This document shows, one piece after another, positions 3,467-59,205 of a stretch of DNA of 64,000 bases. Position numbers and translations under genes: made by a program. The first letter of the stretch is position 1. Every line of letters begins with the position of its first letter. The DNA comes from Sulfitobacter sp. (GTDB lineage: Bacteria > Pseudomonadota > Alphaproteobacteria > Rhodobacterales > Rhodobacteraceae). Where the stretch lies: assembly GCA_047634585.1 (NCBI GenBank), contig JBLIAN010000014.1, forward strand, positions 18,110 to 82,109, read 5' to 3'. The notes under the pieces were generated by a model, which searched no databases, was not told the DNA's origin, and worked only from the letters and a program-made list of their open reading frames with translations.

Positions 3467-4705
3467 TCAGGTCAGGGTTTCAAGATAGGCCTCGATGAAC
3501 CGCTGGGTAAAGCTTTCCATGTCCACCAGCGGTCCGGGTTGGTAAAATTTCGAATTCACCCCCCGCTGGTTGTTTTCGATGATCTGCTTGTCGGCAATGG
3601 TTGTCACATCCCAGAGCCACTTCAAACGCTCCAGATCATAATCCCGCCCCGCCTGTGCATCCTCATGCACCAACCAGATGATTTCCTGAATCGAGGTCTC
3701 TTTGTCCACGGGGACAAACCGGTAGAGCATCACATGATCGCAATAGACCAGCATCGGATTGAGGATACCCACATAGACATCCGAGGCACCGCTGTCATAT
3801 CCGCTGAGATCGCCCAGCAAGGGTGCCAACGCGGCGCCATCCGCGCTGCCTGTCAGAAACCCGTCAAAAAGCGCATAGCGGTTATAGGAATAATCCGGCG
3901 ATCCATCGGGCCGTTTCACGCCGGTCCGGTCCAGATAGGCCCGCGGCACACCCGCAGATTTGGATCGTGTGTCCATCTCGGCATTCAGGGGGGCCACGCG
4001 ATCAGCATCCATATGGATCACATGTGAGCGGGCAAATTCGGGATGTGCCGCGGTACAATGATAACATTCATTGTAATTCTCGACGAGCAGCTTCCAGTTC
4101 GCCCCCACTGGATAGTTTTCGCGATGCGCAATTTTGGTCCGCTCCAGCCCGAAAGGTGCAAGGATCGGGTCAAGCTCGCGGCGCAGGGTGGCAAAACTGC
4201 TGGGATTTTCTGACAGCGACACATAGATCAGCCCATGAAACACCTCGACGGCGACGGGTTTCAGGCCCAATGTGCTGCGGTCGTGTTTTTCATCCAGCAT
4301 CCTTGCGCTGAACAGGCTACCGTCCAGATTGAACACCCATGCGTGATAGGGACAGGTAAAGCGTCTGGTGTTGCCGCGCGGTTCAAGACAGACCCGCGAT
4401 CCGCGATGGCGACAGACATTGGCCAGCGCCCGTACCCTGCCCGCTTTGCCGCGCACAATGATGATACTTTCTGCCAGCAGTTCGAACAGGAAATAATCCC
4501 CCTCGTTCGGGATTTCGCTCAGATGGCCGGCCAGTTGCCATTCCTGATGGAACACATTTTCCATGTCTTTGGCAAAGATCGCAGATGACCGGTAAAACGC
4601 CTGTTGCAAGGCAAAGCCCGGCTGATGCGCAGCGACCAGCGCGGCAATATCAAGGGGCTGATCGGCGCGGCTGTCGCGGTGCGTCTTTTCCGGTTGACCG
4701 ATCAT
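3467..4705 (-). CDS. Rieske [2Fe-2S] non-heme-iron oxygenase, alpha (catalytic) subunit, GbcA/ring-hydroxylating-like
   Basis: Rieske motif CRHRGSRVC...CPYHAW. Mononuclear iron motif NECYHCTAAH (H-x4-H). Its start codon overlaps the upstream ATPase stop (ATGA at 4702-4705). Confidence 0.85.
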   Translation of the reverse strand: MIGQPEKTHRDSRADQPLDIAALVAAHQPGFALQQAFYRSSAIFAKDMENVFHQEWQLAGHLSEIPNEGDYFLFELLAESIIIVRGKAGRVRALANVCRHRGSRVCLEPRGNTRRFTCPYHAWVFNLDGSLFSARMLDEKHDRSTLGLKPVAVEVFHGLIYVSLSENPSSFATLRRELDPILAPFGLERTKIAHRENYPVGANWKLLVENYNECYHCTAAHPEFARSHVIHMDADRVAPLNAEMDTRSKSAGVPRAYLDRTGVKRPDGSPDYSYNRYALFDGFLTGSADGAALAPLLGDLSGYDSGASDVYVGILNPMLVYCDHVMLYRFVPVDKETSIQEIIWLVHEDAQAGRDYDLERLKWLWDVTTIADKQIIENNQRGVNSKFYQPGPLVDMESFTQRFIEAYLETLT

Positions 4706-5799
4706 TCAAACACCACCACGGATTCCGCGCCCCAGCCGATCCTCACCGGGCTTCCCGGCGTGGCGATAGAGCGGCCTGCGGTATTGCGCATCGAAATGGT
4801 GACCAGGTCTTGCTGTTCGGGCAAAAGCACGCTGTAATAGGTCATATCACCATAATAATCACTGCTGACGACTTCGCCCGCGACTTCGTTTTCGGCGGTG
4901 TCAGCCGCATCGAACAACAGCGTCAACATTTCCGGCCGGATGCCGACCTTGTTGATCTCGGCAGGATTGACACCCTCGGGCAGCGCCGAAAACGGCAGCG
5001 TGACCTGACCCAAAGCGGAAATATCCAGGGTGACCCCCGTATCAGCAGTGGTTGTCACCGAGGCCGCAAGAAAGTTCATCACCCCGATAAACGAGGCAAC
5101 CCGTTGGGTTGCGGGGCGGCGGTACAGGTCTTCGGGGGCGGCAAGCTGTGCGATTTCGCCCTCAAACATCACCGCAATCCGGTCCGACATGATCAGGGCT
5201 TCTTCCTGATCATGGGTCACCAGAATAAAGGTAATGCCCAGCGTTTTTTGCAATTCCCGCAGTTCCACCTGCATTTGATCGCGCAGTTTCTTGTCCAGTG
5301 CCGACAGGGGCTCATCCAGCAAGATCACCTTGGGGCGCATCACCAAGGCCCGCGCCAAAGCGACCCGCTGGCGTTGACCGCCCGACAATTCATGCGCCGC
5401 GCGCCGGCCATATCCGGCCAGATCAACCATCGCGAGCGCTTCGTCCACTTCGCGCGTGATCTGCGCCTTGGGCAGTTTTTTGGTTTTCAACCCATAGCCG
5501 ACATTTTCGGAGACGCTGAGATGCGGAAAAATCGCATAGCTTTGAAACACCATATTGGTGGGGCGCTGGTTGGCGGCGATGCCATCCATCGCCTGACCGT
5601 CGATGGTGATGGTTCCCGAACTAGGTGGCTCGAACCCTGCGATCATCCGCAGCAGCGTGGTTTTGCCACAACCCGAAGGCCCCAGCAGCGAGAAAAATTC
5701 GCCCTCGCGGATATCGGCATTGATGCCTTTGAGCGCCTCGAAAGACCCAAAGTTCTTGCGCAGATTGCGCAGTTCGATAATGGGGCGCTGGCCTGACAT
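4702..5799 (-). CDS. ABC transporter ATP-binding protein, PotA-like
   Basis: Walker A GPSGCGKTT, signature LSGGQRQR, Walker B ILLDEP. Start chosen at MSGQRPIIELRNL (5799). The longer ORF reaching 5868 would overlap the upstream permease. Confidence 0.9.
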   Translation of the reverse strand: MSGQRPIIELRNLRKNFGSFEALKGINADIREGEFFSLLGPSGCGKTTLLRMIAGFEPPSSGTITIDGQAMDGIAANQRPTNMVFQSYAIFPHLSVSENVGYGLKTKKLPKAQITREVDEALAMVDLAGYGRRAAHELSGGQRQRVALARALVMRPKVILLDEPLSALDKKLRDQMQVELRELQKTLGITFILVTHDQEEALIMSDRIAVMFEGEIAQLAAPEDLYRRPATQRVASFIGVMNFLAASVTTTADTGVTLDISALGQVTLPFSALPEGVNPAEINKVGIRPEMLTLLFDAADTAENEVAGEVVSSDYYGDMTYYSVLLPEQQDLVTISMRNTAGRSIATPGSPVRIGWGAESVVVFE

Positions 5800-5801
5800 G
5801 T

Positions 5802-6626
5802 TTATACGAAACCTTCCGTTGAGGATGTGTTCTTGCCCTGACGCCGCGCGGCCCGGCGCCGGAACCATTCCGCCACCACCAGCAACCCGACAGACAGCGC
5901 CAGCAGGAGTGTCCCCAGCGCCATCACCGAGGGCAGTTTGGTGGGAAAGCGCAGCTGGCTCCAGATATAGACCGGCAGGGTGGCATCGGTGCCGGTCAGG
6001 AAAAATGCGATGATGAATTCATCCAGCGAGATCGTAAAGCAGATCAGCAAACTGGAAATCACCCCCGGCATCACCAGCGGCAGGGTGATGCGCCGGAAAG
6101 TACCCCAGCGGCTTTCGCCCAGATCAAAGGAGGCCTCTTCGAGGCTTTGATCCAGCCCGGCAAAAGCCGAGCTCAGGATGGCAATGGAAAACGGCGTGCA
6201 GATCAACACATGCCCCGCCACCACCGTCCAAAGTGACAGCGACAGCCCCAGTTGCATCAGCATCACAATCAGCGACACCGCGACGATGATCTCAGGCAGG
6301 ACCAGCGGCAGCATGATAAAGCCGACAATGCCCTTTTGCGCCGGAAACCGGTAGCGCGCCGCGGCCCGCGCCGCGCAGGCCCCCAAAAAGGTACTGACCA
6401 TCGCCGTGCTGAGGGCAACAAGTGCCGAATTGCCGACAGCATGATGCAGCGCATCTGTGGTCCAGAGGACCGTGAACCACTGTGTGGTGAAGCCACTGAG
6501 CGGAAAGGCGATAATCGTTGCGTCATTAAAGGCAAACAGCGGCAGCAGGATCACCGGCGCATAGAGGAAAACCATATAGGTCACCGCATAGATGGTCAGC
6601 CATTTCGGGGACATTGCGCGCCTCAC
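5802..6626 (-). CDS. ABC transporter permease, PotC-like
   Basis: Multi-TM protein with an EAA-like loop (LEEASFDLGESRWGTFRRITLP). Tightly packed between the other transporter genes. Confidence 0.85.
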   Translation of the reverse strand: MRRAMSPKWLTIYAVTYMVFLYAPVILLPLFAFNDATIIAFPLSGFTTQWFTVLWTTDALHHAVGNSALVALSTAMVSTFLGACAARAAARYRFPAQKGIVGFIMLPLVLPEIIVAVSLIVMLMQLGLSLSLWTVVAGHVLICTPFSIAILSSAFAGLDQSLEEASFDLGESRWGTFRRITLPLVMPGVISSLLICFTISLDEFIIAFFLTGTDATLPVYIWSQLRFPTKLPSVMALGTLLLALSVGLLVVAEWFRRRAARRQGKNTSSTEGFV

Positions 6627-7492
6627 CTTGCCACCTTTCCGCCGATTTTACGGCCGATCAGGTAAATGCCGATGCTGATCAGCGCCACCACCACCATTGA
6701 TGTCACCGCCAGCGCCGCACCCAGCGGGGCGTTATTGGCCTTGCCGAATTGTATCTGGATCATATTCGCCACCATCAGCCCGTCGGTGCCGCCCACCAGT
6801 TTGGGCGTGATGAAATCCCCCACTGTCGGGATCAGCACAATCAGGGTTGCCGCCACCACACCGGGGATCGCCAATGGAAATGTCACACGCCAGAAACGCC
6901 GGAACGGCCCATCACCCAGGTCTTCTGCCGCTTCCAGCAGGGAACGATCGATCTTTTCCAAGGCGACAAAGATCGGCAGGATCGCAAAAGGCGCCCAGGC
7001 ATGGGCAAGGGTCAGCACCACCGCATTGGCGTTATAAAGGATAAAAGTCAGCGGCTCGTCGATCAGGCCCAGCTGCAACAGCGCGGTGTTCAAGACCCCG
7101 TTATAGCCAAGGATCACCTTCCACAGGAACACCCGCAACAGATAGCTGGTCCAGAACGGCACCGTGATCAGAAACAGCCACAGCGCCTTGTGCTGTTTGA
7201 CATGAAACGACAGGTAATAGGCCACGGGAAACGCCAGCACCACCGTGGCAAAGGTCACAATCAGCGAAATCCGCAAGGACCGCCACAGCAGGGTTTTATA
7301 GATCGGCTGGCTGAAGACCTCGGCATAATTTGCCCATGTCAGGGTCCGGTCGATGTCCAGATAGTTCTGGGTCCAGAAACTAAAGGTCACAACCATCACC
7401 AAAGGCGCTGCCAGCATGATCAGCGCATACCCGAACGGCAGGCCGATCAGGGTCAGCCCCTGCCGGTCTTCGCGGCTCAGGAATCTTGCCAC
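6623..7492 (-). CDS. ABC transporter permease, PotB-like
   Basis: Multi-TM protein with an EAA loop (LLEAAEDLGDGPFRRFWRVTFP). Overlaps the next gene by 4 nt. Confidence 0.85.
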   Translation of the reverse strand: MARFLSREDRQGLTLIGLPFGYALIMLAAPLVMVVTFSFWTQNYLDIDRTLTWANYAEVFSQPIYKTLLWRSLRISLIVTFATVVLAFPVAYYLSFHVKQHKALWLFLITVPFWTSYLLRVFLWKVILGYNGVLNTALLQLGLIDEPLTFILYNANAVVLTLAHAWAPFAILPIFVALEKIDRSLLEAAEDLGDGPFRRFWRVTFPLAIPGVVAATLIVLIPTVGDFITPKLVGGTDGLMVANMIQIQFGKANNAPLGAALAVTSMVVVALISIGIYLIGRKIGGKVAR

Positions 7493-7493
7493 G

Positions 7494-8702
7494 TCACCCC
7501 ACCTGCGTTTCGGCAGACAAAAGCGCGGCGTTGCGGGTTTGCAACCCGCCTGTTGGCGGCTCGTCTTCTTTCAGCACCGGAAACAACACCCGCAGGGCAT
7601 CGTGATAGGTTTTCACCCCGTATTCCAGATCCGACAGCACCACCCCGTCATAGCCCGAGGAAAACGCCGCCTCCCATGTCCATTCGATCAATTGTTCGTC
7701 TTCTTTGCTGGTCAAACGGTCAATCCGCATGCTGAGGTACCGTGCCAACCGCATCCGGCGGTCTTCGTCCTTGTGACGATAGGTGGCACCGCGCTGGATC
7801 GTCTTGCCATTGGCCAGTGGAAATTCGTGATAGAAAATCACACTGTCAGGATAGAGCCCGAAAACCAGATTGGGGAACATGCCGAGGTAAAGCCACGCAT
7901 GTTTATGATCCGCATCCAGCTGCGCGGGGGGCTCCAGAATGGTTTTGTAATTCTGCACAGACCACAGCCGTGCATCCCCGTCACGGAACTTGGAAAAGGA
8001 CCGCGACGTGCCGTGTTGGAAAGGTTCGTCATAATAATTTTTGCCAAACAGGTCCGCAAGGCCGGGATGTGCCATCGGTACATGATAGCCCTCGTTGTCT
8101 ACATCCCGCACACATTTCCAGTTCGCCTCGATTTCGGTGGTCCAGAAGCCGTTTCCATCCGGCACCATATCCGCAAGGTCATATTGCGCAAGCTCCGGCG
8201 CAAACCGCGCCATCACTTCGGCCACCGAAGGCTGCGGGCCGGGTTTGAAGCGCACAAACACAAAGCCGTTCCAGATCTCCATTTCCAGCGGCTTTAGCCC
8301 CATCTTGACCGGATCCATCTTGGGCAACGAGGCGGGCTGCGCCACCCCGCGCAATGTCCCGTCAAGATTATAGGCCCAGCCATGAAACGGACAGATCACC
8401 GCAGATTTGCAAGTGCCCGATGATTCCGCCACCACCCGCGATCCACGATGACGGCACAGGTTATGAAAGGCCCGCACGACATCATCCTGTCCGCGCAGTA
8501 CCAAGGCCCGTTCGCCGACAAAATCAAGGGTGATAAAATCGCCCGCATCGGGAAGATCATTCACATGGCACACCGCCTGCCAATGACTGCGGAAAAGCAC
8601 GTCTTTTTCCAGTGCCAGCATTTCTTCACTGAAGAAGCTCCATGCTGGCAATCCTGTCCGGTCCCAATCCTCTGGGGGTGCCGCCTGCGAAGTTGTCGTC
8701 AT
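7494..8702 (-). CDS. Rieske [2Fe-2S] non-heme-iron oxygenase, alpha subunit (second paralogue)
   Basis: CRHRGSRVV...CPFHGW and NEGYHVPMAH (H-x4-H). Start set at MTTTSQ (8702); the ORF is open to 8750. Confidence 0.85.
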   Translation of the reverse strand: MTTTSQAAPPEDWDRTGLPAWSFFSEEMLALEKDVLFRSHWQAVCHVNDLPDAGDFITLDFVGERALVLRGQDDVVRAFHNLCRHRGSRVVAESSGTCKSAVICPFHGWAYNLDGTLRGVAQPASLPKMDPVKMGLKPLEMEIWNGFVFVRFKPGPQPSVAEVMARFAPELAQYDLADMVPDGNGFWTTEIEANWKCVRDVDNEGYHVPMAHPGLADLFGKNYYDEPFQHGTSRSFSKFRDGDARLWSVQNYKTILEPPAQLDADHKHAWLYLGMFPNLVFGLYPDSVIFYHEFPLANGKTIQRGATYRHKDEDRRMRLARYLSMRIDRLTSKEDEQLIEWTWEAAFSSGYDGVVLSDLEYGVKTYHDALRVLFPVLKEDEPPTGGLQTRNAALLSAETQVG

Positions 8703-47955: not shown

Positions 47956-49101
47956 ATGACGCTTACTGCAAATTGGTCCTACCCCACCGCAATCCGTTTT
48001 GGCGCGGGGCGCATTTCCGAAATCGCCGATGCCTGCAAGGCGGCGGGCATGTCAAAACCGCTGCTGGTCACCGACCGTGGACTTGCGGAAATGGAAATCA
48101 CAACCCGCACCCTTGATCTGCTGGAAGCGGCGGGTCTGGGGCGTGCGCTCTTTGCCGATGTGGATCCGAACCCGAACGAGAAAAATGCCGCAGCGGGGGT
48201 GAAAGCCTATAACGACGGGGGCCATGACGGTGTGGTTGCCTTTGGCGGTGGCTCGGGCCTTGATCTGGGCAAACTTGTGGCCTTCCTTGCCGGTCAAACC
48301 CGCCCGCTGTGGGATTTTGAAGACATCGGGGATTGGTGGACCCGCGCGGATGCCGATGCGATTGCGCCGATTGTGGCAGTGCCGACCACCGCAGGCACGG
48401 GCTCAGAAGTGGGCCGTGCATCGGTGATCACCAATTCGGTGACCAAAGAGAAAAAGATCATCTTCCACCCTAAATTCCTGCCCAGCGTGGTGATTTGCGA
48501 CCCTGAGCTGACCATCGGCATGCCGCGTTTCATCACGGCGGGGACCGGGCTTGATGCCTTTGCCCATTGCGTCGAGGCGTTTTCATCGCCGCATTACCAC
48601 CCGATGTCGCAGGGCATGGCCCTCGAAGGTATGCGTCTGGTCAAGGATTACCTGCCGCGCGCCTATGCCGATGGCAGCGATATTGAGGCCCGTGCGCAGA
48701 TGATGTCAGCCGCGGCAATGGGCGCAACGGCGTTTCAAAAGGGGCTGGGTGCAATCCATGCGCTGTCCCATCCGATTGGCGCGATCTATCACACGCACCA
48801 CGGCACCACCAATGCGGTCTGTATGCCGGCGGTGCTGCAATTCAACGCCCCCGCGATCCGCGAAAAATTCGGCGATGCGGCGAACTACCTTGGTATTGCG
48901 GGCGGGTTTGACGGGTTCTGTGCCTTTGTCGATGAAATGAACGCGCTGTTTCAAGTGCCGCGCCGTTTGACAGATATGGGCATCGAAAACCCGGATATCG
49001 ACCGGATCGTTGCAGGTGCCTTGAAAGACCCAAGCACCGGCGGCAACCCGATTGAAATGACCGCAGAAAACACCCGCAAACTGTTGTTGCAAATCGTTTA
49101 A
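47956..49101 (+). CDS. Iron-containing (group III) alcohol dehydrogenase
   Basis: GGGSGLDLGK nucleotide motif. His-rich metal site (AFAHCVEA, HALSHPIG...HTHHG). Confidence 0.9.
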   Translation: MTLTANWSYPTAIRFGAGRISEIADACKAAGMSKPLLVTDRGLAEMEITTRTLDLLEAAGLGRALFADVDPNPNEKNAAAGVKAYNDGGHDGVVAFGGGSGLDLGKLVAFLAGQTRPLWDFEDIGDWWTRADADAIAPIVAVPTTAGTGSEVGRASVITNSVTKEKKIIFHPKFLPSVVICDPELTIGMPRFITAGTGLDAFAHCVEAFSSPHYHPMSQGMALEGMRLVKDYLPRAYADGSDIEARAQMMSAAAMGATAFQKGLGAIHALSHPIGAIYHTHHGTTNAVCMPAVLQFNAPAIREKFGDAANYLGIAGGFDGFCAFVDEMNALFQVPRRLTDMGIENPDIDRIVAGALKDPSTGGNPIEMTAENTRKLLLQIV

Positions 49102-49185
49102 AACACTCGCGGCAGGATCAGACGGTCAGGTACCTTTTGCGGATCTGGCCGTCTTTATGCGCAATCCCACCTCCCGGAGCCGGGC

Positions 49186-49722
49186 TTAGCGATAGACCCG
49201 ACAGCCGGTTTCGGTCAGCGCGCCTGTTTCAACAGGATGGCCACGTTTGGGGTTGATCAGCACCCGCTGGATGCCCGTCAACCGCCGCATACATTGATTG
49301 GCCGCGCCATTTCCGGCACGGCGCCCGTCCACGTAGATATCCAGCCAGACATAGCCTTTATAACCGCTGTGGCAGGGGCCGTTCTGGGGTGTGTTGCCAT
49401 CGCCACAGAGGTCTTCGACAATGGCGTATTTGCGCAGACGCGGGAAATAGAAACGGGTGCCCGCAGGAAAATCCATGATGCTGCGGCTGCCGCGTTTGAT
49501 ATGCCCGACCGCCAGTGTCACCGGATCGGCGTAGGTGCCTGTGCCGCCTGCCCCGCGATGCACAACCGGTCTGGCAATCGCTGTTGATCCGCGCGGCGTG
49601 TTGTCCCAATAGCTGTATCCAGTCAGGAAAGCGGTGAATTGCTGTTCGGCAAGCGCGGCACCTGCGCCCATCATCAGGCCAAGCGCCACCGCGACCTGCA
49701 GGCAGGTTTTTTTGATCTGCAT
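49186..49722 (-). CDS. Secreted hypothetical protein, possibly a 3D/double-psi-beta-barrel (MltA-like) fold
   Basis: Signal peptide MQIKKTCLQVAVALGLMMGAGAALA. The segment YAIVEDLCGDG...WLDIYV is reminiscent of the 3D-domain Asp pattern. Weak, by eye only. Confidence 0.4.
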   Translation of the reverse strand: MQIKKTCLQVAVALGLMMGAGAALAEQQFTAFLTGYSYWDNTPRGSTAIARPVVHRGAGGTGTYADPVTLAVGHIKRGSRSIMDFPAGTRFYFPRLRKYAIVEDLCGDGNTPQNGPCHSGYKGYVWLDIYVDGRRAGNGAANQCMRRLTGIQRVLINPKRGHPVETGALTETGCRVYR

Positions 49723-50472
49723 CTGAGTGATCCTCTTTGTTTCTTGGGGCCCGATGCAGCGCAAGCGGCCGTTTTCGGGTGCTGAGGAAACCTCGGAGAG
49801 TAAGTCTAACAAGCGGTTAATCAGACAGGCCCAAGCGTAGGGCATCGGGAAAGGCAGAGGCATATTCGGCGCTGTTTGCGCGACCCAGGGTTATTTGCCC
49901 CACGCCGGTACAGCGCAAGTCGGGTCAGCTAAGCGATTGTTTATGTGTGAAAACCCAGCGCCGACGCAGGTGCAGCCAATTTGACAGAATCACGTATCAA
50001 ATTTGCAAAACTTTCCCCCAAAAGATGTCCCTTACCATGCCAAAGCAACCTTAGGCGTAGTTCGCCATGAATAATCACCCGATTATGAGCAGATCAGCCG
50101 CCATCACGAAACAATGATGCCATATTGCAGGGCAAATCAGGGCATAAATGTGCCGTATGATGACACGCCCAATTTTAGACATATACTGAGCTCATTCCGT
50201 TCAAGATTGACAGGGTTCCTGTGGATCAGGGACGAAATTCTAGTGGGTGTTTCTGGAGGGTGGCCAGAAACATCCGGCGCGCACTGCCAGCGCGGACCCG
50301 CCAATGCGGCGGTGCCTGGGGGTAATGCAACCAACTAGACCAAATGGATCGGGCTATCGGATTTCGGGCGGTGCTTTCTTGGCATCACAGGGGTCTGTCC
50401 GGTTTCAAAACGTTGACCAAAGGCCACTGCCCAGATGATGCAAACAGTAACCACGCTTAAAGGACCACAGCG

Positions 50473-53400
50473 GTGAGCCGCCTGTCGCGTTCCTATACCG
50501 AAACCCGCGTAGCACGCGGCAAATCGGATCGCGTGTTTCTGGACCCCAGCAACCGCCGCCGGTCCCGCGTTCTGATCTCGGCGCTGACGCTGTTTACCGC
50601 TGTGGTGATCTGGCTTGTGGTATTTTCGATTTCGCTGGTGTCGACCCAAGGCATCAGGGCTGCCCTGCCGGACGAGATCATCACACTGAAAGGCGAGTTT
50701 CACCAGACCGGCGCAGTAAACCACGGCGATCATGCACATCCCGATGCAGGATCGGCCCTGCCTGCGATTGAACGCTATGCCTTGCAGGAAACCGCGAAAT
50801 ACCGCTGCAAGACCCCGGATGTTTCCGCCCCTGCCGCCACCGCCCAGCGCATCTATGCCGTGATCCCAAGCGACCTGCCCGAAGCCGCAGGCGCGTTGGA
50901 TCACAGCTGTGACACCGTCAATGTGGTGATGCCGATGTGGTTTGATCTGCGCACCCAGAACGATGCTCTGGATGTTGTCGGATTGGCCGACGACGCCCGC
51001 GAAGCGGTGCAAGATTATGTCGCCAACCAGACCGGTGCGGTTGAAACTCTGCCCATCCTGCAATTTGATCCGGCAACAGCGCGTTTTCTGGAAAGCGCAA
51101 AGGGGCGACGTGCGGTGGGGGTGGCGCTGTCACGCTTTGCTCAGGATCTGGCCAAAGACAACAAGGTGGTGGGGCTTTGTCTTGATGCCAGCCAATTGTC
51201 AGAAAAAGCCGGTGTCGCCCTTGGCGAGATTCTTGGTCCCTTTGGCAAGCGCATGGAAGATCTGGGTCTGCGGTCCTGTGCTGTGATCGCCGCGACCGCC
51301 AGCGACAACAATCTGCGTCTCGCCGATCATTTCCTTGATCTGGTGATGGTCAAAGGCTTTGACGAACCCTGGGTTGGCTCTGCGCCGCGCCCTGTGGCGG
51401 CACGGGACTGGTTTGAACAGCGGGTTGCCACGGTTCAGAAACTGATCAGCGCCGACAAGCTGGTGATCGCATTGGGCACCTTTTCCGTGGATTGGGTATC
51501 TGGCCGCGCCAAGCCCGAAACCCTGCCTTATGCACAGATCACCACGGCCCTGGCCGACAGCAAGGTCACACCGGTATTCATGCCCGCCGCCGGGGCGGCA
51601 CAGGCGGTTTATGTGGATGGCAAAGGCCGCCAGCACCGCAGCTGGATCATGGATGCGGCCTCTGCCCATAATCAGCTGATGTGGCTGAAAAAGACCAAGG
51701 TGCGCGGTGTCGGCATCTGGGGTCTGGGCTATGAAGATCCGGGCATCTGGGCGGTGCTGGATCAATCCCGCCTCGATCTGGCGCTGGATCCAGCCACCCT
51801 GGGCAACGTGGTCTTGTCCAACTATGTCGAACATATCGGTGCAGGCCCGTTTGTGGCACCTGTGTCGATGCCGATTGTCGGCCAGCGTGACGTGGTGATC
51901 GACCCGCAGACCAATCAGGTGATGGACATCACCTATGGACGGATGGCGCGGGCGGCTTCGGTGCGGCTTTATGGACGCGGCCAACCCAACAAGGTTGTGC
52001 TGACCTTTGATGATGGTCCGGTGCGCAATTACACCACTGAAACGCTGGATATCCTCAAGGAAACCAACACACCTGCCTCGTTCTTTGTGCTGGGCCATAA
52101 CGCGATCAAGAATCCTGATCTGATTGAACGCATCCTTGCCGATGGTCACGAGCTGGGATCGCATACCTATTGGCATCCGCATATGAACGATATTTCTGCC
52201 TCCCGGGCCACGGTTGAGGTGAATTCGGTGCAATTGCTGGTCAATGGCATTACCGGTCGCAGCATGCGCCTGTACCGCGAACCCTATATGCGCAGCGGTG
52301 GTCCGATCACCTCAAAAGAAGTGGCCTCGCTGCTGCCTTTGGAAGAGGCCGGATATATCATCGCGGGCATGGATGTGGTGCCGCGTGACTGGCTGACCGT
52401 AACCGCCCATGATCTGGCCGCTGAAATCATCAAACAGGTCGAAGAAAACGCTGGCGGCATTGTCTTGCTGCATGATGGCGGCGGCGATCAAAGCCAGACC
52501 GTTGCGGCCCTGCCGATTGTGATCAAGACCCTGCGCGACAAGGGCTATGAATTTACCTCCATTGCCGAATTTCTGGACACCACCCCTGAAATCCTGATGC
52601 CAAAGGTAGACGGGTTGAAATCAACCTTCAGCAATGTGTCTTTCAAGGCAGTTGGCAACAGCTGGTCGGTGGTGGAAATCACCTTCTGGACGGTGTTCGG
52701 CCTTGGGTTGTTGCGCGCAGTGCTGTTGCTGTGGCTGACCACCAAACGCAAACGCCATATGCCCAGCTATGCCAAAGACGTCCCCAGCGTCACCGTGGTG
52801 ATCCCCGCCTATAACGAAGCAGACGTGATCGCGGCCTGCATCGAACGGGTGCTGCAATCGCAATATCCCTATTTCGACATTATCGTCGTGGATGACGGAT
52901 CGACCGATGACACCTATGCCAAAGCCCTGCCCTATGCGAACCGCGCCAATGTGACGGTGCTGTCACAGGCCAATGGCGGCAAATCCTCGGCACTGAACCG
53001 GGCGTTGTTTGAAACCGAAAGCGATGTATTGATCTGTATTGATGCGGATTCACAGATTGCGCCGGATGCGGTCGGCCTGTTGGCCGGGCATTTCAACGAT
53101 CCGGAAATCGGGGCGGTGGCGGGCCGTGTGGTGGTGGGCAACCGCACCAGCATCCTGACCCGTTTGCAGGCGCTGGAATATATCACCGCCCAAAGCATCG
53201 AACGCCGCGCCAAGGAATATCTGAACGCAATCACCGTTGTGCCCGGTGCCATCGGCGCATGGCGCACCACCGCCGTGATGGAGGCCGGTATCTTTTCCAC
53301 CGAAACCCTGACCGAAGATGCGGATATGACCATGGCAATCATCCGCTCCAACTACCGGGTGATCTATGAAGAACGCGCTATCGCCAAAACCGAAACCCCA

Positions 53401-53901
53401 GCCACGGTAAGCGGCTTGCTGACCCAGCGGTTGCGCTGGTCCCTGGGGATGATGCAGGCAGGCTGGAAACATTTGGGCGCGGTGATCGAAGGGCGCAGGC
53501 TGGGCCTGGTTTCGCTGCCTGATCTGGCGATCTTTGGCTATCTGATGCCGCTTCTGGCCCCGATTGCCGATCTGTTCCTGATCATCCTTGCGGTCAGCTA
53601 TGTCTCTGGCTGGATCAATGGCACCGAACCTGTGATCACCACCGCGGTACCGCCCAGCCTGTTGCTGGCCTATCTGATCCTGCCGTTGCTTGAACTTATT
53701 ACCGTGTTCCTTGCCTTCAAACTGGACCCCAAAGAAGATCGCAGTCTATTGTGGCTTATCCCGCTGCAACGGCTGTTTTACCGCCAGTTGCTGTATATCT
53801 CGGTGATCCGCGCGATGTGGCGTGCCACAACCGGATCGCTTGCCAAATGGGGCCATGCGCAACGTGCGGGCTTTCAGTTCGACCAGACGAGACAGACATG
53901 A
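50473..53901 (+). CDS. Single-chain GH18-like + CE4 polysaccharide deacetylase + processive family-2 glycosyltransferase (membrane-embedded exopolysaccharide synthase)
   Basis: GTG start directly after an in-frame TAA, with an AAGGA RBS. One TM helix, then a GH18-like region (...GVGIWGLGYEDPGIW). CE4 motifs TFDDGP, HTYWH, REPY, LLHDG. A second TM segment, then GT2 motifs VIPAYNE, DDGSTDDT, DADSQ, TEDAD, QRLRW. C-terminal TM helices. Confidence 0.85.
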   Translation: MSRLSRSYTETRVARGKSDRVFLDPSNRRRSRVLISALTLFTAVVIWLVVFSISLVSTQGIRAALPDEIITLKGEFHQTGAVNHGDHAHPDAGSALPAIERYALQETAKYRCKTPDVSAPAATAQRIYAVIPSDLPEAAGALDHSCDTVNVVMPMWFDLRTQNDALDVVGLADDAREAVQDYVANQTGAVETLPILQFDPATARFLESAKGRRAVGVALSRFAQDLAKDNKVVGLCLDASQLSEKAGVALGEILGPFGKRMEDLGLRSCAVIAATASDNNLRLADHFLDLVMVKGFDEPWVGSAPRPVAARDWFEQRVATVQKLISADKLVIALGTFSVDWVSGRAKPETLPYAQITTALADSKVTPVFMPAAGAAQAVYVDGKGRQHRSWIMDAASAHNQLMWLKKTKVRGVGIWGLGYEDPGIWAVLDQSRLDLALDPATLGNVVLSNYVEHIGAGPFVAPVSMPIVGQRDVVIDPQTNQVMDITYGRMARAASVRLYGRGQPNKVVLTFDDGPVRNYTTETLDILKETNTPASFFVLGHNAIKNPDLIERILADGHELGSHTYWHPHMNDISASRATVEVNSVQLLVNGITGRSMRLYREPYMRSGGPITSKEVASLLPLEEAGYIIAGMDVVPRDWLTVTAHDLAAEIIKQVEENAGGIVLLHDGGGDQSQTVAALPIVIKTLRDKGYEFTSIAEFLDTTPEILMPKVDGLKSTFSNVSFKAVGNSWSVVEITFWTVFGLGLLRAVLLLWLTTKRKRHMPSYAKDVPSVTVVIPAYNEADVIAACIERVLQSQYPYFDIIVVDDGSTDDTYAKALPYANRANVTVLSQANGGKSSALNRALFETESDVLICIDADSQIAPDAVGLLAGHFNDPEIGAVAGRVVVGNRTSILTRLQALEYITAQSIERRAKEYLNAITVVPGAIGAWRTTAVMEAGIFSTETLTEDADMTMAIIRSNYRVIYEERAIAKTETPATVSGLLTQRLRWSLGMMQAGWKHLGAVIEGRRLGLVSLPDLAIFGYLMPLLAPIADLFLIILAVSYVSGWINGTEPVITTAVPPSLLLAYLILPLLELITVFLAFKLDPKEDRSLLWLIPLQRLFYRQLLYISVIRAMWRATTGSLAKWGHAQRAGFQFDQTRQT

Positions 53902-56468
53902 TGCACCGCCGGACCTTTCTGAAATGGAGCAGCGCCCTGCCCTTGGCCCTGATGGCCCAGGGCGGCATGGCCACGGCGCTGTCAACTTCGCGCAATATGA
54001 TTGTGGTGCTGGACGGGATCACCGCCCAAACCGATGCACCGCGCCTGTCGGCACTGCTGAATGCCTTTGTGAAACAAGGCCTGCCGGTCAGCTGTATCGT
54101 GGAAACCCATCACCCCGTTGCGGGCAATCTGCGCCCTGACACAGCAGTATCCCGCGTGCTGCGCAGGCTGCATGGACAGGTGCAGGGATTGATTGATCTG
54201 CTGCCCGTGCTGCCGGATCTGGCCGCCCAGACCGCGCATTTTCAGGCCCGATCTGCCTATGATGGCCAGCAGCACCTGTTTGACGCGATCTGGGGCAATA
54301 CCGCAGGCCAGACCATCGGTTTCCGCCCCCGTGCCGTGGCTTGTGACATGCGTGCCGATATCCAGCCGCCAAACGGCGCGCGCACCAGCGGTATCCGCAA
54401 TGTGCTGATGCGCCCCGAAACCACACAGCCTGTTCAATCCGAAGCATGGGAAAACGGTATTGTGCGGCTGATCGGCGGTGCCCGTGTCGCCCTGAGCGCC
54501 AGTGTACAAGACCTGCAAAGCGGCCCTGCCCAGCCGGGGGAACGGGTGCTGTACCTTTCTGCCGCTGATCTGCCTGTGATGACATTGGCCGAGGTCGAAC
54601 GCCACGCCACAGCATTTGCCCAACATGCCCAGCATCCCGATGGCAACGAATGGATCAGCCCGATCCTTGCCTCTGACATCCAGTTTCGCGACGCCTATAG
54701 CTATCGCCGCAAGATGGCGCTGCATTTTCTGGCTTCAGAAGGGTCTTCAAGTGTCGCGCGCGCGATCCTGACAGATTTCCGTCTGGATTTGCTGAATGCA
54801 GGCCTGCCGTCCAGTTTCGGTGCGACGGTCGATGCCGGGCCGCTGGGCACGGACGGCACCGGCTATTGGATCGACATCCAACGCAGCAAAGCAGTCCTGC
54901 CGATCCTGCCTGTGCAGGATTACAACATGGCATCGGATGCATTTACCCCCGCCGCCCTGAACGCAGCGCGCAATACCTATGGCATCGGCGTGTCCTTTCG
55001 CCCGCTGGCCACCGCGCAGGCTGCGGGTATTACCGCAGAAAACACCATCGTCGTCCCCGCCGAGATCATCCAAGACCCTGCCCAGCTGGCCGGGCTGGAA
55101 AACAGCGATTTTGGCACCGAAGATTATGCCATCCTGATCTCAGATCAGGTGCTGCGCAACGCGCCCCAGCGTAGAATCCTGAAAACCGCGCTCTTGGCGC
55201 TTGCCGATGATGGCATCACCACAGCTGTGACCCTGCCGAAATATGTCCGCTCCATTGTGCCCACCGATGCCTATCTGACCCATTACCGGCGCACCTCGGC
55301 CTATGCCGGACGGGCGCGTTCCTCCGACACGCCAAACGGCGGCCAAAGCCAGGCCCAGCTGATGGCGGATGCCAAAACCGCTTGGGGCTATTTTGAAAAA
55401 TGGACCAACCGCAAAACCGGCCTGTGCCCCGCCACGGTGAATTTTTCCGAAGATGGTGTGGTGCTGCATGAAGCCGTGACAATGTGGGACGTGGGCAGCC
55501 AGATCAACGCGTTGATCGCGGCAAATGAATTGTTCCTGATCTCGGATGACGCGTTTCAAACGGCGGTGCGCAAAATCCTGCCCAATATCGCCGGGCGCAA
55601 ATCACAGGGGCGTTTGTTGCCACAAGGCTGGATTGTCACCAACCGGATCAAATGGGGCGTCAAGGATTTCGACGGCTGTGACGCGGGCCGTCTGTTGGCC
55701 GCGCTTTACAATCTCGACACCCATGCCGCCACCAAGGATCACGCCGCATCCACCGTACAATCATGGGATCTGGACAAGGTGATCAAGGACGGGGTGATCT
55801 ATAACGTCACTGACGGCGTCGAAAGCACGACCTATGTCTCTCACTGCGCCCATTACGCTTCTTGGGCGTTCCGCACCTGGGGCCATGAGGTGCGTTCCCC
55901 CTATGAGGTGTTCGACGGCAAAAGCGAAGCCGACGGGCGCATTGCCCTGCTTGAAATCGCGGGGCAAATCGGCCCGATGGGGGCAGAGCCACTTTTGCTA
56001 GAAGCCCTCGAACTGGGCATGTCGCCTGAATCGGAATACCTTGCCGAGGTGCTGTTTGCCGCCCAGCTTGAGGAATTTGACGAAACCGGTGTCCTGACCT
56101 GCGTGTCCGAAGGCCCGATAGATCATGAGCCCTGGTTCACCTATCAGGGTCTGCAATTCGACGCACCGGGCCGGGTCTGGGCCACCGATACCGTTGCCAG
56201 CCTGCCCGAACACCGTTCACCGGAATTTCGCAAGAAAAACCAGGTGGTCAGTTCCAAGGGGGCCTATCTCTGGGCCGCATACAAGAACCATGAATATTGT
56301 GACCGTCTGGTCGATTATGTGCGCGAAAAAGCCCGCACCAGCAATGGTTTTGCCTCCAGCATCTATCAACAGACCGGCAAGGCCACGCAAACCTATGCCG
56401 ACATCAACACCAATGCGGTGATCCTGCAATCCATCGCCCAGATGATGCGCAACCGGCAAAATCAATAG
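53898..56468 (+). CDS. Large Tat-exported periplasmic protein (856 aa), uncharacterised; the C-terminal half is possibly DUF3131 / (alpha/alpha)6 glycoside-hydrolase-like
   Basis: The ATG overlaps the synthase stop (ATGA). Canonical twin-arginine signal MMHRRTFLKWSSALPLALMA. The DUF3131 assignment is from memory of the family length and neighbourhood, not from a search. Confidence 0.6.
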   Translation: MMHRRTFLKWSSALPLALMAQGGMATALSTSRNMIVVLDGITAQTDAPRLSALLNAFVKQGLPVSCIVETHHPVAGNLRPDTAVSRVLRRLHGQVQGLIDLLPVLPDLAAQTAHFQARSAYDGQQHLFDAIWGNTAGQTIGFRPRAVACDMRADIQPPNGARTSGIRNVLMRPETTQPVQSEAWENGIVRLIGGARVALSASVQDLQSGPAQPGERVLYLSAADLPVMTLAEVERHATAFAQHAQHPDGNEWISPILASDIQFRDAYSYRRKMALHFLASEGSSSVARAILTDFRLDLLNAGLPSSFGATVDAGPLGTDGTGYWIDIQRSKAVLPILPVQDYNMASDAFTPAALNAARNTYGIGVSFRPLATAQAAGITAENTIVVPAEIIQDPAQLAGLENSDFGTEDYAILISDQVLRNAPQRRILKTALLALADDGITTAVTLPKYVRSIVPTDAYLTHYRRTSAYAGRARSSDTPNGGQSQAQLMADAKTAWGYFEKWTNRKTGLCPATVNFSEDGVVLHEAVTMWDVGSQINALIAANELFLISDDAFQTAVRKILPNIAGRKSQGRLLPQGWIVTNRIKWGVKDFDGCDAGRLLAALYNLDTHAATKDHAASTVQSWDLDKVIKDGVIYNVTDGVESTTYVSHCAHYASWAFRTWGHEVRSPYEVFDGKSEADGRIALLEIAGQIGPMGAEPLLLEALELGMSPESEYLAEVLFAAQLEEFDETGVLTCVSEGPIDHEPWFTYQGLQFDAPGRVWATDTVASLPEHRSPEFRKKNQVVSSKGAYLWAAYKNHEYCDRLVDYVREKARTSNGFASSIYQQTGKATQTYADINTNAVILQSIAQMMRNRQNQ

Positions 56469-56491
56469 CGTCACTTTCAATCTTGCAGGTT

Positions 56492-56527
56492 CATTACACA
56501 TCTGTAATAATCCTTCCAAACCGGAAG
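56492..56527 (+). promoter_or_regulatory. Palindrome and hairpin upstream of the XRE-cupin regulator
   Basis: ATTACA-CATC-TGTAAT (56492-56507). CCTTCC-N5-GGAAGG (56511-56527), whose right arm contains the probable RBS. Confidence 0.3.
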
Positions 56528-56534
56528 GGAACCG

Positions 56535-57158
56535 ATGCCGCACCCCGAAGCCACAGCGCCCGAAGCCCCCGATCTTTGCATCGGCACCCGCCTGCGGGAA
56601 TTTCGTATGGCACAGGGGCTGTCATTGGCAAATCTATCGCGGCTTACCGGCATTTCGGACGCTACATTGTCTCGGGTCGAAAATGCCCAGACCCTTGTCT
56701 CGGCGCATAATCTGTACATCCTCAGCAAGGCATTAAAGGTTGATATCACTGCCTTTTATGAACCCGCCGCCAGCCCGATCCGCACCGGTATCCGGTCGGT
56801 TTCACGCGCAGGCGCAGGCCGCAAGATCGACACCGCCCGTTTTTCGGCCACGGTTTTCGGGGCCGATCTGGCCAACAAGAAAATGCACCCCGCCCTTGAT
56901 CTGGTCAGCGCCACAACGCTGGAACAGGTTGGAGGATTGGCCGGACACAGCGGCGAAGAATTTCTGCTGGTGCTGGAGGGGGCGTTGGTGCTGCATTCTG
57001 CCCATTACGCGCCTTTGCGCCTGAACACCGGCGATTCCATCTATTTCGATGCGGGCATGCCCCATGCCTATCTGGCAGCGGACGACACGGCCGCGCGCAT
57101 CCTTGTGGTGAATTCTTCCGAACCGGATCTGGGCGATGACCGGCCCGATCCTACCTGA
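56535..57158 (+). CDS. XRE-family helix-turn-helix regulator with a C-terminal cupin sensor domain
   Basis: HTH_3 (LREFRMAQGLSLANLSRLTGISDATLSRVENAQ) plus a cupin_2 region (HSGEEFLLVLEGALVL...GDSIYFDAGMPHAY). Confidence 0.8.
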   Translation: MPHPEATAPEAPDLCIGTRLREFRMAQGLSLANLSRLTGISDATLSRVENAQTLVSAHNLYILSKALKVDITAFYEPAASPIRTGIRSVSRAGAGRKIDTARFSATVFGADLANKKMHPALDLVSATTLEQVGGLAGHSGEEFLLVLEGALVLHSAHYAPLRLNTGDSIYFDAGMPHAYLAADDTAARILVVNSSEPDLGDDRPDPT

Positions 57159-57202
57159 CCCAAGATCCCCCCTGACCTGATCCTTCCTGAAAGGCCTATC
57201 CC

Positions 57203-58336
57203 ATGACTGCCGATCCCAAAATCACCCCCCAAAGCATTCGCAAGGCCGAACTGGTGCTGCCGGTGCAGGATTTGAAAACCGAAATGCCGTTTTTTCTGGG
57301 CCAGCTCGGGTTTCGCCTTGAGACGATCTATCCGGCGGATGATCCGGCGGTGGCGGTTGTGTCCGGCCACGGCCTGCGCTTGCGGCTGGAACGCGATGCC
57401 GATGTGCAGCCCGGCAAGGTGGTGCTCTATTGCGATGATCCGGCGGCACTGGGTGGCGCGGATACGGTGCTGACCTCGCCCAATGGCAACCGCGTTGACC
57501 TTCAGGATGCCAATCCGCCTTTGGTGATCCCAGAAACCCGCCATTCCTTTATGGTGCGGCGTCTGGCCGACAGTGACAGCTGGGTGATTGGCCGCGCGGG
57601 GATGCGCTATCGCGATCTGATCACCGACCGTCTGGGCGGGTCGATCATCGCCAGCCACATCCGTATTCCCGATGGCGGGCCGGTGCCGGATATGGTGCAT
57701 TACCACATCGTCGGGTTTCAGCTGATCTTTTGTTATCGCGGCTGGGTAAAGCTGGTATATGAGGATCAGGGCGCCCCTTTTATCCTTGAAGCGGGCAATT
57801 GCGTGATCCAGCCGCCACAAATCCGCCACCGCGTGCTGGAAGCCTCTGACAATGTCGAAGTCATCGAAATCGGCGTGCCGGCGGAACATGTGACCACCAT
57901 TGATCATGACATGGAATTGCCCAATGCGGTGGTGAACCCTGATCGCGATTGGAATGGCACCAAATTCATCCACCACCGCGCCGATCAGGCCAGATGGCTG
58001 CCTTGGCGCGTGCCCGGCTGGGAGGCCCGCGATACCGGTATCGGCGCGGCCACCCAATCAGTGGCGGGGGTGCAGGTCAGCCGCCCGACAGCAGACACCG
58101 ACAGCGCCCCCCCCGCCTGGACCAGCCATAACACCGACATTCTGTTCGGCTTTGTCAAAGAGGGCAGTCTGACATTGGAGGCCGACAGCGAAGGCCGCAC
58201 ATCCCATGATCTGGTCGCCGGAGATGCCTTTGTCCTGCCGCCGTTTCTCAAGACCCGATTTGTGAATCCGTCAGCAGATTGCGAATTGATCGAAGTGACC
58301 CTTTCGTCGGAATTTGCGACAACGGTGCATGAATAG
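57203..58336 (+). CDS. Multidomain VOC-like plus double-cupin protein, function unknown
   Basis: N-terminal glyoxalase-like beta-alpha-beta-beta-beta pattern. Central cupin with HYH...PPQIRH. A second C-terminal cupin lacks the His cluster. Confidence 0.5.
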   Translation: MTADPKITPQSIRKAELVLPVQDLKTEMPFFLGQLGFRLETIYPADDPAVAVVSGHGLRLRLERDADVQPGKVVLYCDDPAALGGADTVLTSPNGNRVDLQDANPPLVIPETRHSFMVRRLADSDSWVIGRAGMRYRDLITDRLGGSIIASHIRIPDGGPVPDMVHYHIVGFQLIFCYRGWVKLVYEDQGAPFILEAGNCVIQPPQIRHRVLEASDNVEVIEIGVPAEHVTTIDHDMELPNAVVNPDRDWNGTKFIHHRADQARWLPWRVPGWEARDTGIGAATQSVAGVQVSRPTADTDSAPPAWTSHNTDILFGFVKEGSLTLEADSEGRTSHDLVAGDAFVLPPFLKTRFVNPSADCELIEVTLSSEFATTVHE

Positions 58337-58578: not shown

Positions 58579-59127
58579 CTATGCGTGAAGGTCTGCTTTG
58601 GATAGCCGTATCCAGTTAAATCCCATCAAAAGGACCAGTATTACAGCCAAGGTTGTCGAAACGGACTTGAGTATCGTGGCAGAGCTGGCGGCATAGACAA
58701 GCGGAACAGAGACCTCTGGCCAGCTCCAGATCATCGCTATGATACCAAAGTTCTCGACATAATCGAACATGGCACCAACAACCGAAAAGGCGATGCCAAA
58801 ACGGACAAATTTCCTGTTTGGTACGCGTTGTCCAAGCCAGCAGATCGCGGCAACCATAGTCAGCGCGAGCATTGCTGGATAAATGGTGTCCAAAGCGATC
58901 TGGCGACTGAGATAATAACCGCGCCCGTCCACTCCCAGCGCGTCAAGAAGCGCCGTTGCCTCAGTCGGGCCATAGCCGGACGGACGCATGTCGAAGGGGA
59001 TCTGCCCCGAAACCGCTTCGATATGAGCAAGGGTGACACTTATCATCAGCACATAGATAGACGCAGCTATCAAACCTGAACCAACGGCAATCATTCCAAT
59101 GTGTTTTGACAGAATTCTGTTCGTCAT
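58579..59127 (-). CDS. Hypothetical integral membrane protein (182 aa)
   Basis: Several hydrophobic helices. Start at MTNRILSKH (59127). Visibly more A/T-rich than the flanking genes. Confidence 0.45.
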   Translation of the reverse strand: MTNRILSKHIGMIAVGSGLIAASIYVLMISVTLAHIEAVSGQIPFDMRPSGYGPTEATALLDALGVDGRGYYLSRQIALDTIYPAMLALTMVAAICWLGQRVPNRKFVRFGIAFSVVGAMFDYVENFGIIAMIWSWPEVSVPLVYAASSATILKSVSTTLAVILVLLMGFNWIRLSKADLHA

Positions 59128-59205
59128 TTTGTAAACTCCCTGACCTGTGTCACATATGCCCGCAGAGGGTTTCACCCGCATTATCATTTGATAAGGCACA
59201 CGAAG

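Follow-up and report, generated by a model that had tools for sequence, protein, structure and literature searches.

What does a bacterium build with a membrane protein that joins a glycosidase-like domain, a deacetylase and a processive synthase in one chain, when the first of these domains has lost its catalytic motifs and a large exported protein is encoded immediately downstream? This question is raised by a locus of Sulfitobacter sp. (assembly GCA_047634585.1, contig JBLIAN010000014.1, positions 18,110 to 82,109), a stretch of 64,000 nucleotides that we call the window and in whose own numbering all coordinates are given. Two open reading frames (ORFs) follow each other on its forward (+) strand, and their coordinates and overlap reproduce those of the original prediction: ORF1, the synthase gene (50473..53901), has a GTG start about 9 nt downstream of an AAGGA ribosome-binding site and encodes 1142 aa, while ORF2 (53898..56468, ATG start) encodes an 856-aa protein with a twin-arginine translocation (Tat) signal and a DUF3131 domain. 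The ORF1 stop and the ORF2 start share the tetranucleotide ATGA (53898..53901), as read from the sequence, which predicts translational coupling. A longer ORF2 beginning at a GTG at 53751 was rejected, as its homologues begin MxxRRxFL. Together with a third gene for a small secreted protein, which the earlier description as a two-gene module did not include, these genes on balance appear to form a synthase-dependent system for a partly de-N-acetylated poly-N-acetylglucosamine (PNAG) glycan.

The original prediction placed GH18-like, CE4 and GT2 domains in this order in ORF1, the first two in the periplasm, and this arrangement is supported by Pfam, fold search and hydropathy; every motif it quoted lies at the expected residues. 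Residues 1-57 (50473..50643) comprise an Arg-rich cytoplasmic tail with the motif VF-x-DPS-x-RR-x-x-R and a first transmembrane segment (TM1, residues 33-56), assigned by hydropathy and motif. A second segment (TM2, approximately residues 733-756, 52669..52740, with a hydropathy segment at 736-754) is followed by KRKRH and is predicted to bring the chain back into the cytoplasm; the positive-inside rule places residues 57-735 in the periplasm and the GT2 domain in the cytoplasm. The processive GT2 catalytic core (residues 758-995, 52744..53457) carries the D, DxD, TED and QxxRW signatures as DDGSTDDT (807), DADSQ (857), TEDAD (947) and QRLRW (985), and matches PF00535 (E=2e-30, residues 774-914) and Glyco_tranf_2_3 (771-991), with PF00535, PF13641 and PF13632 all above cut-off. 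The C-terminal membrane segments (residues 996-1142, 53458..53898; hydrophobic at 1010-1081) are predicted to form the translocation channel, and ORF1 thus shows both the motifs and the following membrane helices of a processive membrane GT2 β-glycan synthase. Among curated NCBIfam families, the whole protein scores 191.3 bits to PgaC_IcaA, over profile positions 32-401 of 407, and the GT2 core alone scores 184.5 bits to PgaC_IcaA, 107 to NodC and 66 to CelA. PDB matches of the core include hyaluronan synthase (8e-11) and BcsA (1e-9), and weak Chitin_synth_1/2 matches appear in Pfam.

Immediately before TM1 (ORF1 residues ~18-33; 50473-50570) stands a motif, (V/I)F(F/Y)D(P/A)xxxR(R/W)xR, which is kept at the equivalent position in three-domain synthases of all phyla examined (L003-L072 in our numbering of loci), for example as VFLDPSNRRRSR in the window and as VFFDPTGKRARL and VFYDPQRKRWKRLRR elsewhere. 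Possible roles are those of a regulatory site (perhaps for binding a nucleotide or cyclic di-GMP) or of a gating element.

The periplasmic CE4/NodB deacetylase domain (residues 500-715, 51970..52617) has all five motifs intact: TFDDGP (511), HTYWH (564), REPY (602), PRDW (~640) and LLHDG (665). It matches PF01522 over residues 504-607 (E=2e-29, 102 bits against a cut-off of 23), and a sequence search of the PDB returns CE4 deacetylases down to 4e-28. Taken alone, the domain is best matched in NCBIfam by PdaB, NodB and PgdA (104-124 bits; NodB 110), followed at E<=0.001 by PdaA, YlxY and the XrtA deacetylase family; neither PgaB nor IcaB is among the matches at this threshold, assuming that the library holds models for them.

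The remaining periplasmic part, residues 58-499 (50644..51969), had been described as GH18/chitinase-like, a description that holds for its fold and not for its sequence family or its active site. An AlphaFold model of residues 58-500 (24 sequences; pLDDT 87, pTM 0.85) is a (β/α)8 barrel for which every one of the 50 best Foldseek matches in the PDB is a GH18 protein, including SleL (4s3k, E=1e-19), a Chromobacterium chitinase (5jh8 is a chitinase), SI-CLP and plant class V chitinases; this model and that of ORF2 described below both rest on shallow alignments, although their confidence is high. PF00704 falls below its cut-off on ORF1 (E=0.15, 12.2 bits against 29.6), whereas 51 of 66 homologous N-domains from other genomes match it at E<=0.001, the best at 4e-26. 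Intact relatives carry G-x-x-x-D-[FLW]-E on strand β4, L-M-[AN]-Y-D-[EQ]-H on β6 and W-R-L-G-x-E-D-x-x-x-W on β8, and the catalytic DxE and MxYD motifs are retained in 48 of them. In ORF1 and its clade β4 reads GLCLDAS (D-A-S for DxE, Glu to Ser) and β6 reads VKGFDE (K-G-F-D for MxYD, Met to Lys and Tyr to Phe), while the barrel and the β8 sugar-site motif (LGxEDPxxW) are kept. Because DxE and MxYD are both lost, the domain is catalytically degenerate, a predicted pseudo-enzyme by the standard catalytic criteria for GH18, and it is probably a binding module, a lectin-like guide for the chain and not a hydrolase. No other part of the protein evolves as fast: its identity is 24-43%, compared with 34-74% for CE4 and 42-68% for GT2.

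We surveyed one genome per species and scored at least 61 loci with a hidden Markov model (HMM) for each domain; gene starts at the compared loci come from ORF scanning. The GH18-CE4-GT2 architecture occurs in at least 58 species genomes of Alphaproteobacteria, Acidobacteriota, Bacteroidota, Verrucomicrobiota, Gemmatimonadota, Firmicutes, Desulfobacterota and Gammaproteobacteria, so the architecture is not rare, and nearly all loci encode a single protein of 1100-1200 aa with the same order of N-domain, CE4 and GT2. Departures were seen in L028 (Alicyclobacillus pomorum) and L061, where the GH18-like domain is on a separate or interrupted ORF, and in L052, whose 1393-aa synthase has ~240 additional C-terminal residues.

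The downstream gene is conserved beside the synthase, the outcome of the co-occurrence survey that the original prediction had called for. Synthase and DUF3131 genes are adjacent in 12 loci, with synthase identity down to 34%: the window, L001 (Aestuariicoccus), L062-L064, L067, L068 (a Sulfitobacter faviae plasmid), L069 (a Limimaricola plasmid), L071 (Leisingera), L072 (Bauldia), L073 (Phaeobacter) and L074. L062-L064 and L067 were found through synthase homologues 34-42% identical to ORF1. Sulfitobacter, Leisingera, Phaeobacter, Aestuariicoccus, Limimaricola, Maritimibacter and Bauldia are represented, and the idea that the pair is specific to Sulfitobacter was rejected, since it reaches Bauldia in the Hyphomicrobiales. 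The DUF3131 gene lies downstream on the same strand in 9 of the 12 loci and is divergent in the other 3; the 4-nt overlap recurs in four (window, L063, L071, L073). Matches are also carried by plasmids of 175-313 kb in nine Sulfitobacter records and one Limimaricola record, and in 8 of these 10 listed records a match covers both genes. Conserved gene order thus supports a functional pair of the synthase and the Tat-signal protein.

The same survey relates the state of the GH18 domain to the presence of accessory genes. The association set was collected regardless of partners and joined the window with the loci of the genome scan and those reached through synthase homologues; L068-L074, which were found through the partners themselves, were left out of the count. 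At the 48 loci with an intact DxE, none has an adjacent DUF3131 gene, none has an outer-membrane polysaccharide export (OPX) gene with a stand-alone GH18 gene, and none has the small-protein gene within 4 kb. Of 14 degenerate loci, six have an adjacent DUF3131 gene, four have OPX plus stand-alone GH18, and four have neither. An accessory gene is therefore adjacent in 10 of 14 degenerate and 0 of 48 intact loci (Fisher's exact p=9e-9); as no more than two or three independent events underlie this value, the association should be taken as two parallel cases. Both catalytic motifs are lost in two clades only, Roseobacter/Bauldia (with DUF3131) and Methylobacterium/Rhizobium (with OPX and GH18). 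The second comprises Methylobacterium segetis, Rhizobium albus and two metagenome-assembled genomes (L057, L066), and its stand-alone GH18 proteins match PF00704 at up to 3e-71 (L047), the L057 copy keeping an intact DFE. The clades that lost the motifs carry replacement glycosidase-like genes, a pattern which argues that the system cannot do without a glycosidase function. In the simplest reading, the glycan has to be cleaved or transferred in the periplasm, and this activity can be supplied either in cis or in trans. The OPX operons, in the order synthase, Poly_export and stand-alone GH18, occupy L019 8228-10563, L047 13050-15643, L057 7959-10504 and L066 5178-7546; it is unusual in its own right for a Wza-like OPX protein to serve a synthase-dependent system.

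ORF2, the candidate for the in trans supply in the window, was recognised from the start as a Tat-signal protein, and its N-terminus (MMHRRTFLKWSSALPLALMAQGGMATA; signal peptide MMHRRTFLKW..., 53898..53987) bears this out with a twin-arginine motif (HRRTFLK from residue 3), a hydrophobic stretch and an AxA-type site with probable cleavage after ATA. Pfam TAT_signal scores 17.5 bits, under its 22.7 cut-off; the twin-arginine motif is kept in 46 of 57 family representatives. The protein had been left without an assignable function; its C-terminal half can be given a domain and a predicted fold: residues 491-848 (55368..56441) are a DUF3131 domain (PF11329, E=1e-73, 248.9 bits against a gathering score of 20.3), present in all 57 representatives tested and strongly conserved, with invariant acids D595, E697, E738 and D835. 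An AlphaFold model of ORF2 (21 sequences; pLDDT 80, pTM 0.80) matches, at E=2e-8 to 7e-7, the Cgs cyclisation domain (8rf9, and 8wy1 from the Thermoanaerobacter CGS), the GH144 enzyme CpSGL (5gzh, E=4e-8), a fungal GH162 enzyme (6imu) and EeSGL1 (8xuj), with target-normalised TM scores of 0.39-0.62 on the single-domain targets among them; 2-epimerases and isomerases, which have this fold too, follow at a greater distance. By sequence, a search of the PDB with ORF2 alone found nothing and a narrow profile gave noise only, while a broad 57-sequence family profile gave one marginal match, again 8wy1 (TiCGS, E=0.0039). The model thus indicates that DUF3131 is a glycoside-hydrolase-like (α/α)6 barrel related to the β-1,2-glucanase/cyclic-glucan-synthase (SGL) clan. 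That clan is defined by residues E239, F286 and Y367 of XcSGL, and its characterised members are all specific for β-1,2-glucans, with one group lacking a known substrate (PMC12102758).

The N-terminal half of ORF2 (residues 31-480, 53988..55337) is rich in β/α elements and belongs to a family without assignment. It has no Pfam match at E<=10 and only 81 representatives among 1.84 billion proteins, nearly all of them 830-900 aa long with the region at the same position, and it shows very few invariant residues and no catalytic-looking triad. Aligned with hhalign to the CE4, GH18-like and GT2 domains of ORF1, it reaches at best 18% probability, with CE4, and one of 57 relatives matches DUF2334 weakly (E=0.047); that it is a deacetylase-like (CE4/DUF2334) barrel is only a hunch. 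Directly after the Tat signal (residues 31-41; 53988-54020) the whole family has a strand motif, hydrophobic-x-hydrophobic-x-D-(D/G)-I-x-x-x-T (VVLDGITAQT, VVFDDITGGT, LIDGITPNT), which recalls CE4 motif 1 (TFDDG), although the family conserves no His-His metal site.

Clustering of the neighbouring ORFs brought out the third gene, which lies outside the module as originally drawn. It is encoded on the reverse (-) strand at 49186..49725; the longest ORF extends to 49863, and the probable start is M47 (MQIKKT...), at 49725. The product has a signal peptide ending in GAGAALA/EQQ and a mature part of ~153 aa with four invariant Cys. The gene adjoins the pair in 9 of the 12 loci (window, L063, L064, L067, L068, L071-L074), and the protein is 59-64% identical across loci whose synthases share only 34-35%. 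Its family comprises 524 matches, some of them lipoproteins; the 120 family matches listed contain no Pfam domain, and neither Pfam nor PDB searches, with single sequence or profile, returned a match for the window's protein, which gives the impression of a double-psi β-barrel or 3D domain. The expectation that it always accompanies the pair was rejected: on the Tritonibacter scottomollicae chromosome (L070 9001-9606) it is an orphan that lacks both the synthase and the DUF3131 gene and has a transposase and genes of the type VI secretion effector type as neighbours. Its function may not depend on the pair.

The closest characterised systems are PgaABCD of E. coli and Bordetella and IcaADBC of Staphylococcus. 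They share with ORF1 a processive GT2 with D, DxD, TED and QxxRW and its own channel, and a periplasmic or extracellular CE4 de-N-acetylase; PgaC/IcaA is the curated family nearest to the ORF1 core. PgaB also joins a TIM-barrel glycosidase-like domain to its deacetylase, combining CE4 with a GH153 barrel that resembles GH18/GH20 (PMC5933820). ORF1 differs in uniting the three activities in one polypeptide, with the periplasmic module between TM1 and TM2, in a CE4 that is not PgaB/IcaB-like and in a barrel that is GH18, not GH153, and inactive here as judged from its motifs. Its locus lacks an adjacent PgaD/IcaD, PgaA porin or IcaC gene and adds the DUF3131 protein and the small secreted protein. 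The original prediction held that synthase and deacetylase are split in characterised PNAG systems; Streptomyces MatB contradicts this, being a characterised CE4-TM-GT2 fusion that makes β-1,6 PNAG, sensitive to dispersin B and insensitive to chitinase, with an adjacent required gene, matA, reported to encode no known domain (PMC5972031). Like ORF1, MatB links an extracellular CE4 and an intracellular GT2 through a TM helix; unlike ORF1, it has no GH18 domain, and its host is a Gram-positive actinomycete. NodC and NodB likewise comprise a UDP-N-acetylglucosamine (UDP-GlcNAc) GT2 and an N-acetyl-removing CE4, and the ORF1 deacetylase scores to NodB as given above. The ORF1 core, however, reaches only 107 bits against a NodC cut-off of 550, and the Nod enzymes are separate cytoplasmic/membrane proteins that make short oligomers without a periplasmic module.

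For the three-domain proteins themselves, we take the CDD entries 'GH18_trifunctional' (cd06549) and 'CE4_GT2-like' (cd10962) to be the same, uncharacterised family; cd06549 exists as a glycosyl-hydrolase-like domain (10.1101/621433). The subclade of the window is set apart within it by the loss of the GH18 catalytic motifs and the gain of the DUF3131 and small-protein partners. The literature searched contains no characterisation of the family and no close homologue studied by experiment; the original prediction had likewise called the family uncharacterised. ORF2 shares the fold of its DUF3131 domain with the SGL clan (GH144, GH162, GH189; PMC12102758, PMC10834661), with TM scores of 0.54-0.62 normalised to the targets at Foldseek E values near 1e-8; it differs in having no membership of the clan at the sequence level, in an amino-sugar-type synthase as genomic partner and in the added 450-aa N-terminal half peculiar to its small family.

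We propose that ORF1 would polymerise UDP-GlcNAc and thread the chain through its own C-terminal membrane channel during synthesis. UDP-GlcNAc is the likely donor because of the PgaC/IcaA/NodC/chitin-synthase affinities of the core, the obligatory CE4 domain and a GH18 chemistry that needs the N-acetyl group. The GH18-fold and CE4 insert of ~680 aa would sit in the first periplasmic loop, between TM1 and TM2, so that the tethered CE4 could remove some of the N-acetyl groups as the chain emerges. In most relatives the intact fused GH18 domain would trim the polymer; in the clade of the window the presumably dead domain would bind or guide it, and ORF2, exported in folded form through Tat, would provide the missing periplasmic step by trimming, releasing or transglycosylating the chain, a role parallel to that of the PgaB GH153 domain, PelA or BcsZ in other synthase systems. 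The small Cys-rich protein may be a further periplasmic or outer-membrane-associated component. We advance more tentatively, as a possible and not a probable outcome, that the DUF3131 protein would be the first SGL-clan member to act on an amino-sugar polymer, recruited to replace the decayed GH18 domain and cleaving or transglycosylating, possibly cyclising, the nascent deacetylated poly-GlcNAc.

Several observations weigh against this proposal. ORF1 does not qualify as a PgaC/IcaA equivalog (TIGR03937; 191.3 bits against a cut-off of 422.3). The association between GH18 decay and partner genes counts only about two independent events, and four degenerate loci, three acidobacterial ones (Glu to Gln) and one of Desulfatitalea, have neither partner. 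The characterised structural relatives of DUF3131 act on β-1,2-glucans, not on amino-sugar polymers (PMC12102758). As originally stated, no PgaA, PgaD, Wzx/Wzy or Wza gene lies within ~6 kb of the module; neither does any outer-membrane exporter of the PgaA, BcsC, AlgE or PelB type, and our own OPX HMM has no match across the 64-kb window, which leaves secretion unexplained. Finally, we found no experimental work on any member of the three-domain family.

Linkage is the least secure step. The GT core lies far nearer to PgaC/IcaA than to NodC or cellulose synthase, and for this reason a β-1,6 (PNAG-like) linkage predicted from sequence is the leading candidate, though we hold it with slightly less than even confidence; β-1,4 is a lesser possibility, and other linkages make up the remainder. 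The explanation that best survives beside our own keeps the same machinery and alters the product to the β-1,4-linked, chitin- or chitosan-like polymer hinted at in the original prediction, which we regard as possible but distinctly less so than PNAG. GH18 enzymes cleave beside GlcNAc in β-1,4 polymers, and most of the fused N-domains are true GH18 by sequence. The CE4 domain, with its PdaB, NodB and PgdA affinities and no PgaB/IcaB match, resembles the chitin/peptidoglycan type and, together with the canonical GH18 of the sister operons (such as the stand-alone gene 3' of synthase and OPX in L047), fits β-1,4 better than β-1,6, a further point against PNAG; the weak Chitin_synth_1/2 matches agree with it. 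On the other side stand the GT core (184 bits to PgaC_IcaA, 107 to NodC), the β-1,6 product of MatB, the sole characterised CE4-GT2 fusion, and the hydrolase barrel of PgaB, which is likewise GH18/GH20-like.

A second alternative gives up secretion: the product would be an oligosaccharide like the osmoregulated periplasmic glucans (OPG), perhaps cyclic, with short chains kept in the periplasm instead of a secreted matrix polymer. We consider this unlikely. It would account for the Cgs cyclisation/transglycosylation domain (8rf9, 8wy1) among the fold matches of ORF2, and for the lack of an adjacent outer-membrane exporter at every locus of the DUF3131 type, in contrast to the OPX genes of the sister clade. 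The pairing with a periplasmic glucanase exported by Tat also recalls OpgH/OpgD, and an OpgC_C/Acyl_transf_3 gene stands beside the L063 synthase, although such an acyltransferase is equally expected in PNAG systems (IcaC). In Klebsiella, an accessory block combines a GT2 'cellulose synthase' with three DUF3131 genes and OpgC (PMC12974863). The CE4 and GH18 modules nevertheless point to an amino-sugar polymer, and the pair often lies on large Sulfitobacter plasmids near RTX and type I secretion genes typical of surface or adhesion loci. We know of no periplasmic cyclic form of an amino-sugar polymer.

Less likely again is a non-enzymatic ORF2, a periplasmic scaffold or chaperone that passes the nascent chain to an unlinked exporter, in the manner of BcsB or of the non-catalytic view of the PgaB C-terminal domain. 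The N-terminal half, with its few invariant residues and lack of a catalytic-looking triad, would suit such a role, as would the non-hydrolytic epimerases and isomerases among the fold relatives; the DUF3131 half, however, is very strongly conserved with four invariant acids, and its gain goes together with the decay of DxE and MxYD in the fused GH18 domain. That the two genes are chance neighbours, as the unrelated metabolic genes elsewhere around them might suggest, is effectively refuted by synteny, given adjacency in 12 loci of seven genera in varied contexts and orientations, with the 4-nt overlap in four.

Synthase-dependent systems (cellulose, PNAG, Pel, alginate) underlie biofilms and pair a synthase with a deacetylase or other modifier and with a glycosidase of debated role. 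The three-domain family is widespread in soil and marine phyla; what is new here is a subclade with an apparently inactivated GH18 domain, a co-inherited DUF3131 partner with a rare extra domain and an unannotated small secreted protein. A dead built-in glycosidase beside a separate gene is a natural experiment that makes the need for a glycosidase testable by complementation, and it gives a functional context to DUF3131, to the rare 450-aa domain and to a small-protein family of ~500 members. If true, the recruitment of an SGL fold together with the small protein would amount to a type of synthase-dependent glycan system not recognised before, present in marine Alphaproteobacteria and often plasmid-borne. 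Because the cluster lies on large plasmids of many Sulfitobacter strains, a role in the attachment of roseobacters to algae and particle surfaces is suggested.

The genes within ~6 kb upstream of the module encode a TRAP binding protein, a GS-like protein, an aldehyde dehydrogenase and an Fe-ADH, and those within ~6 kb downstream include HTH-cupin and cupin proteins. Located 3' of the module (56535-58336, +; 58579-59199, -) are an HTH-cupin regulator, a bicupin protein and a 206-aa multi-pass membrane protein that matches no family; none of these three genes is kept beside the module at other loci. The divergent intergenic region between the small-protein and synthase genes (49726..50472, no strand assigned) contains no ORF with homologues and is presumed to be a promoter and regulatory region. 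Promoter and terminator scans did no better than on shuffled sequence, and Rfam has no match in 49000-57000, including no regulatory RNA or cyclic di-GMP riboswitch upstream; one promoter-like match stands at a plausible position (50160-50187, +), the number of matches being no higher than chance.

Other loci show further variation around the synthase. The window has no DUF995 gene, but one that codes for a secreted, small and Cys-rich protein recurs beside the synthase in Sulfitobacter faviae (L068 4501-4983), Leisingera (L071 17230-17805) and Phaeobacter (L073 16394-16879), often with RTX (HemolysinCabind) or type I secretion genes nearby. The membrane acyltransferase gene of L063 (OpgC_C/Acyl_transf_3; 6476-7621, -) is divergent from the synthase and could be IcaC-like or OpgC-like. 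In L074, the pre-TM1 motif and TM1 (AVFADPKNHRRFWIGMIFLL...) end a separate 206-aa ORF (7948-8568) upstream of a 1090-aa synthase (4663-7935), which suggests that the gene is split or frameshifted or that the assembly is in error here.

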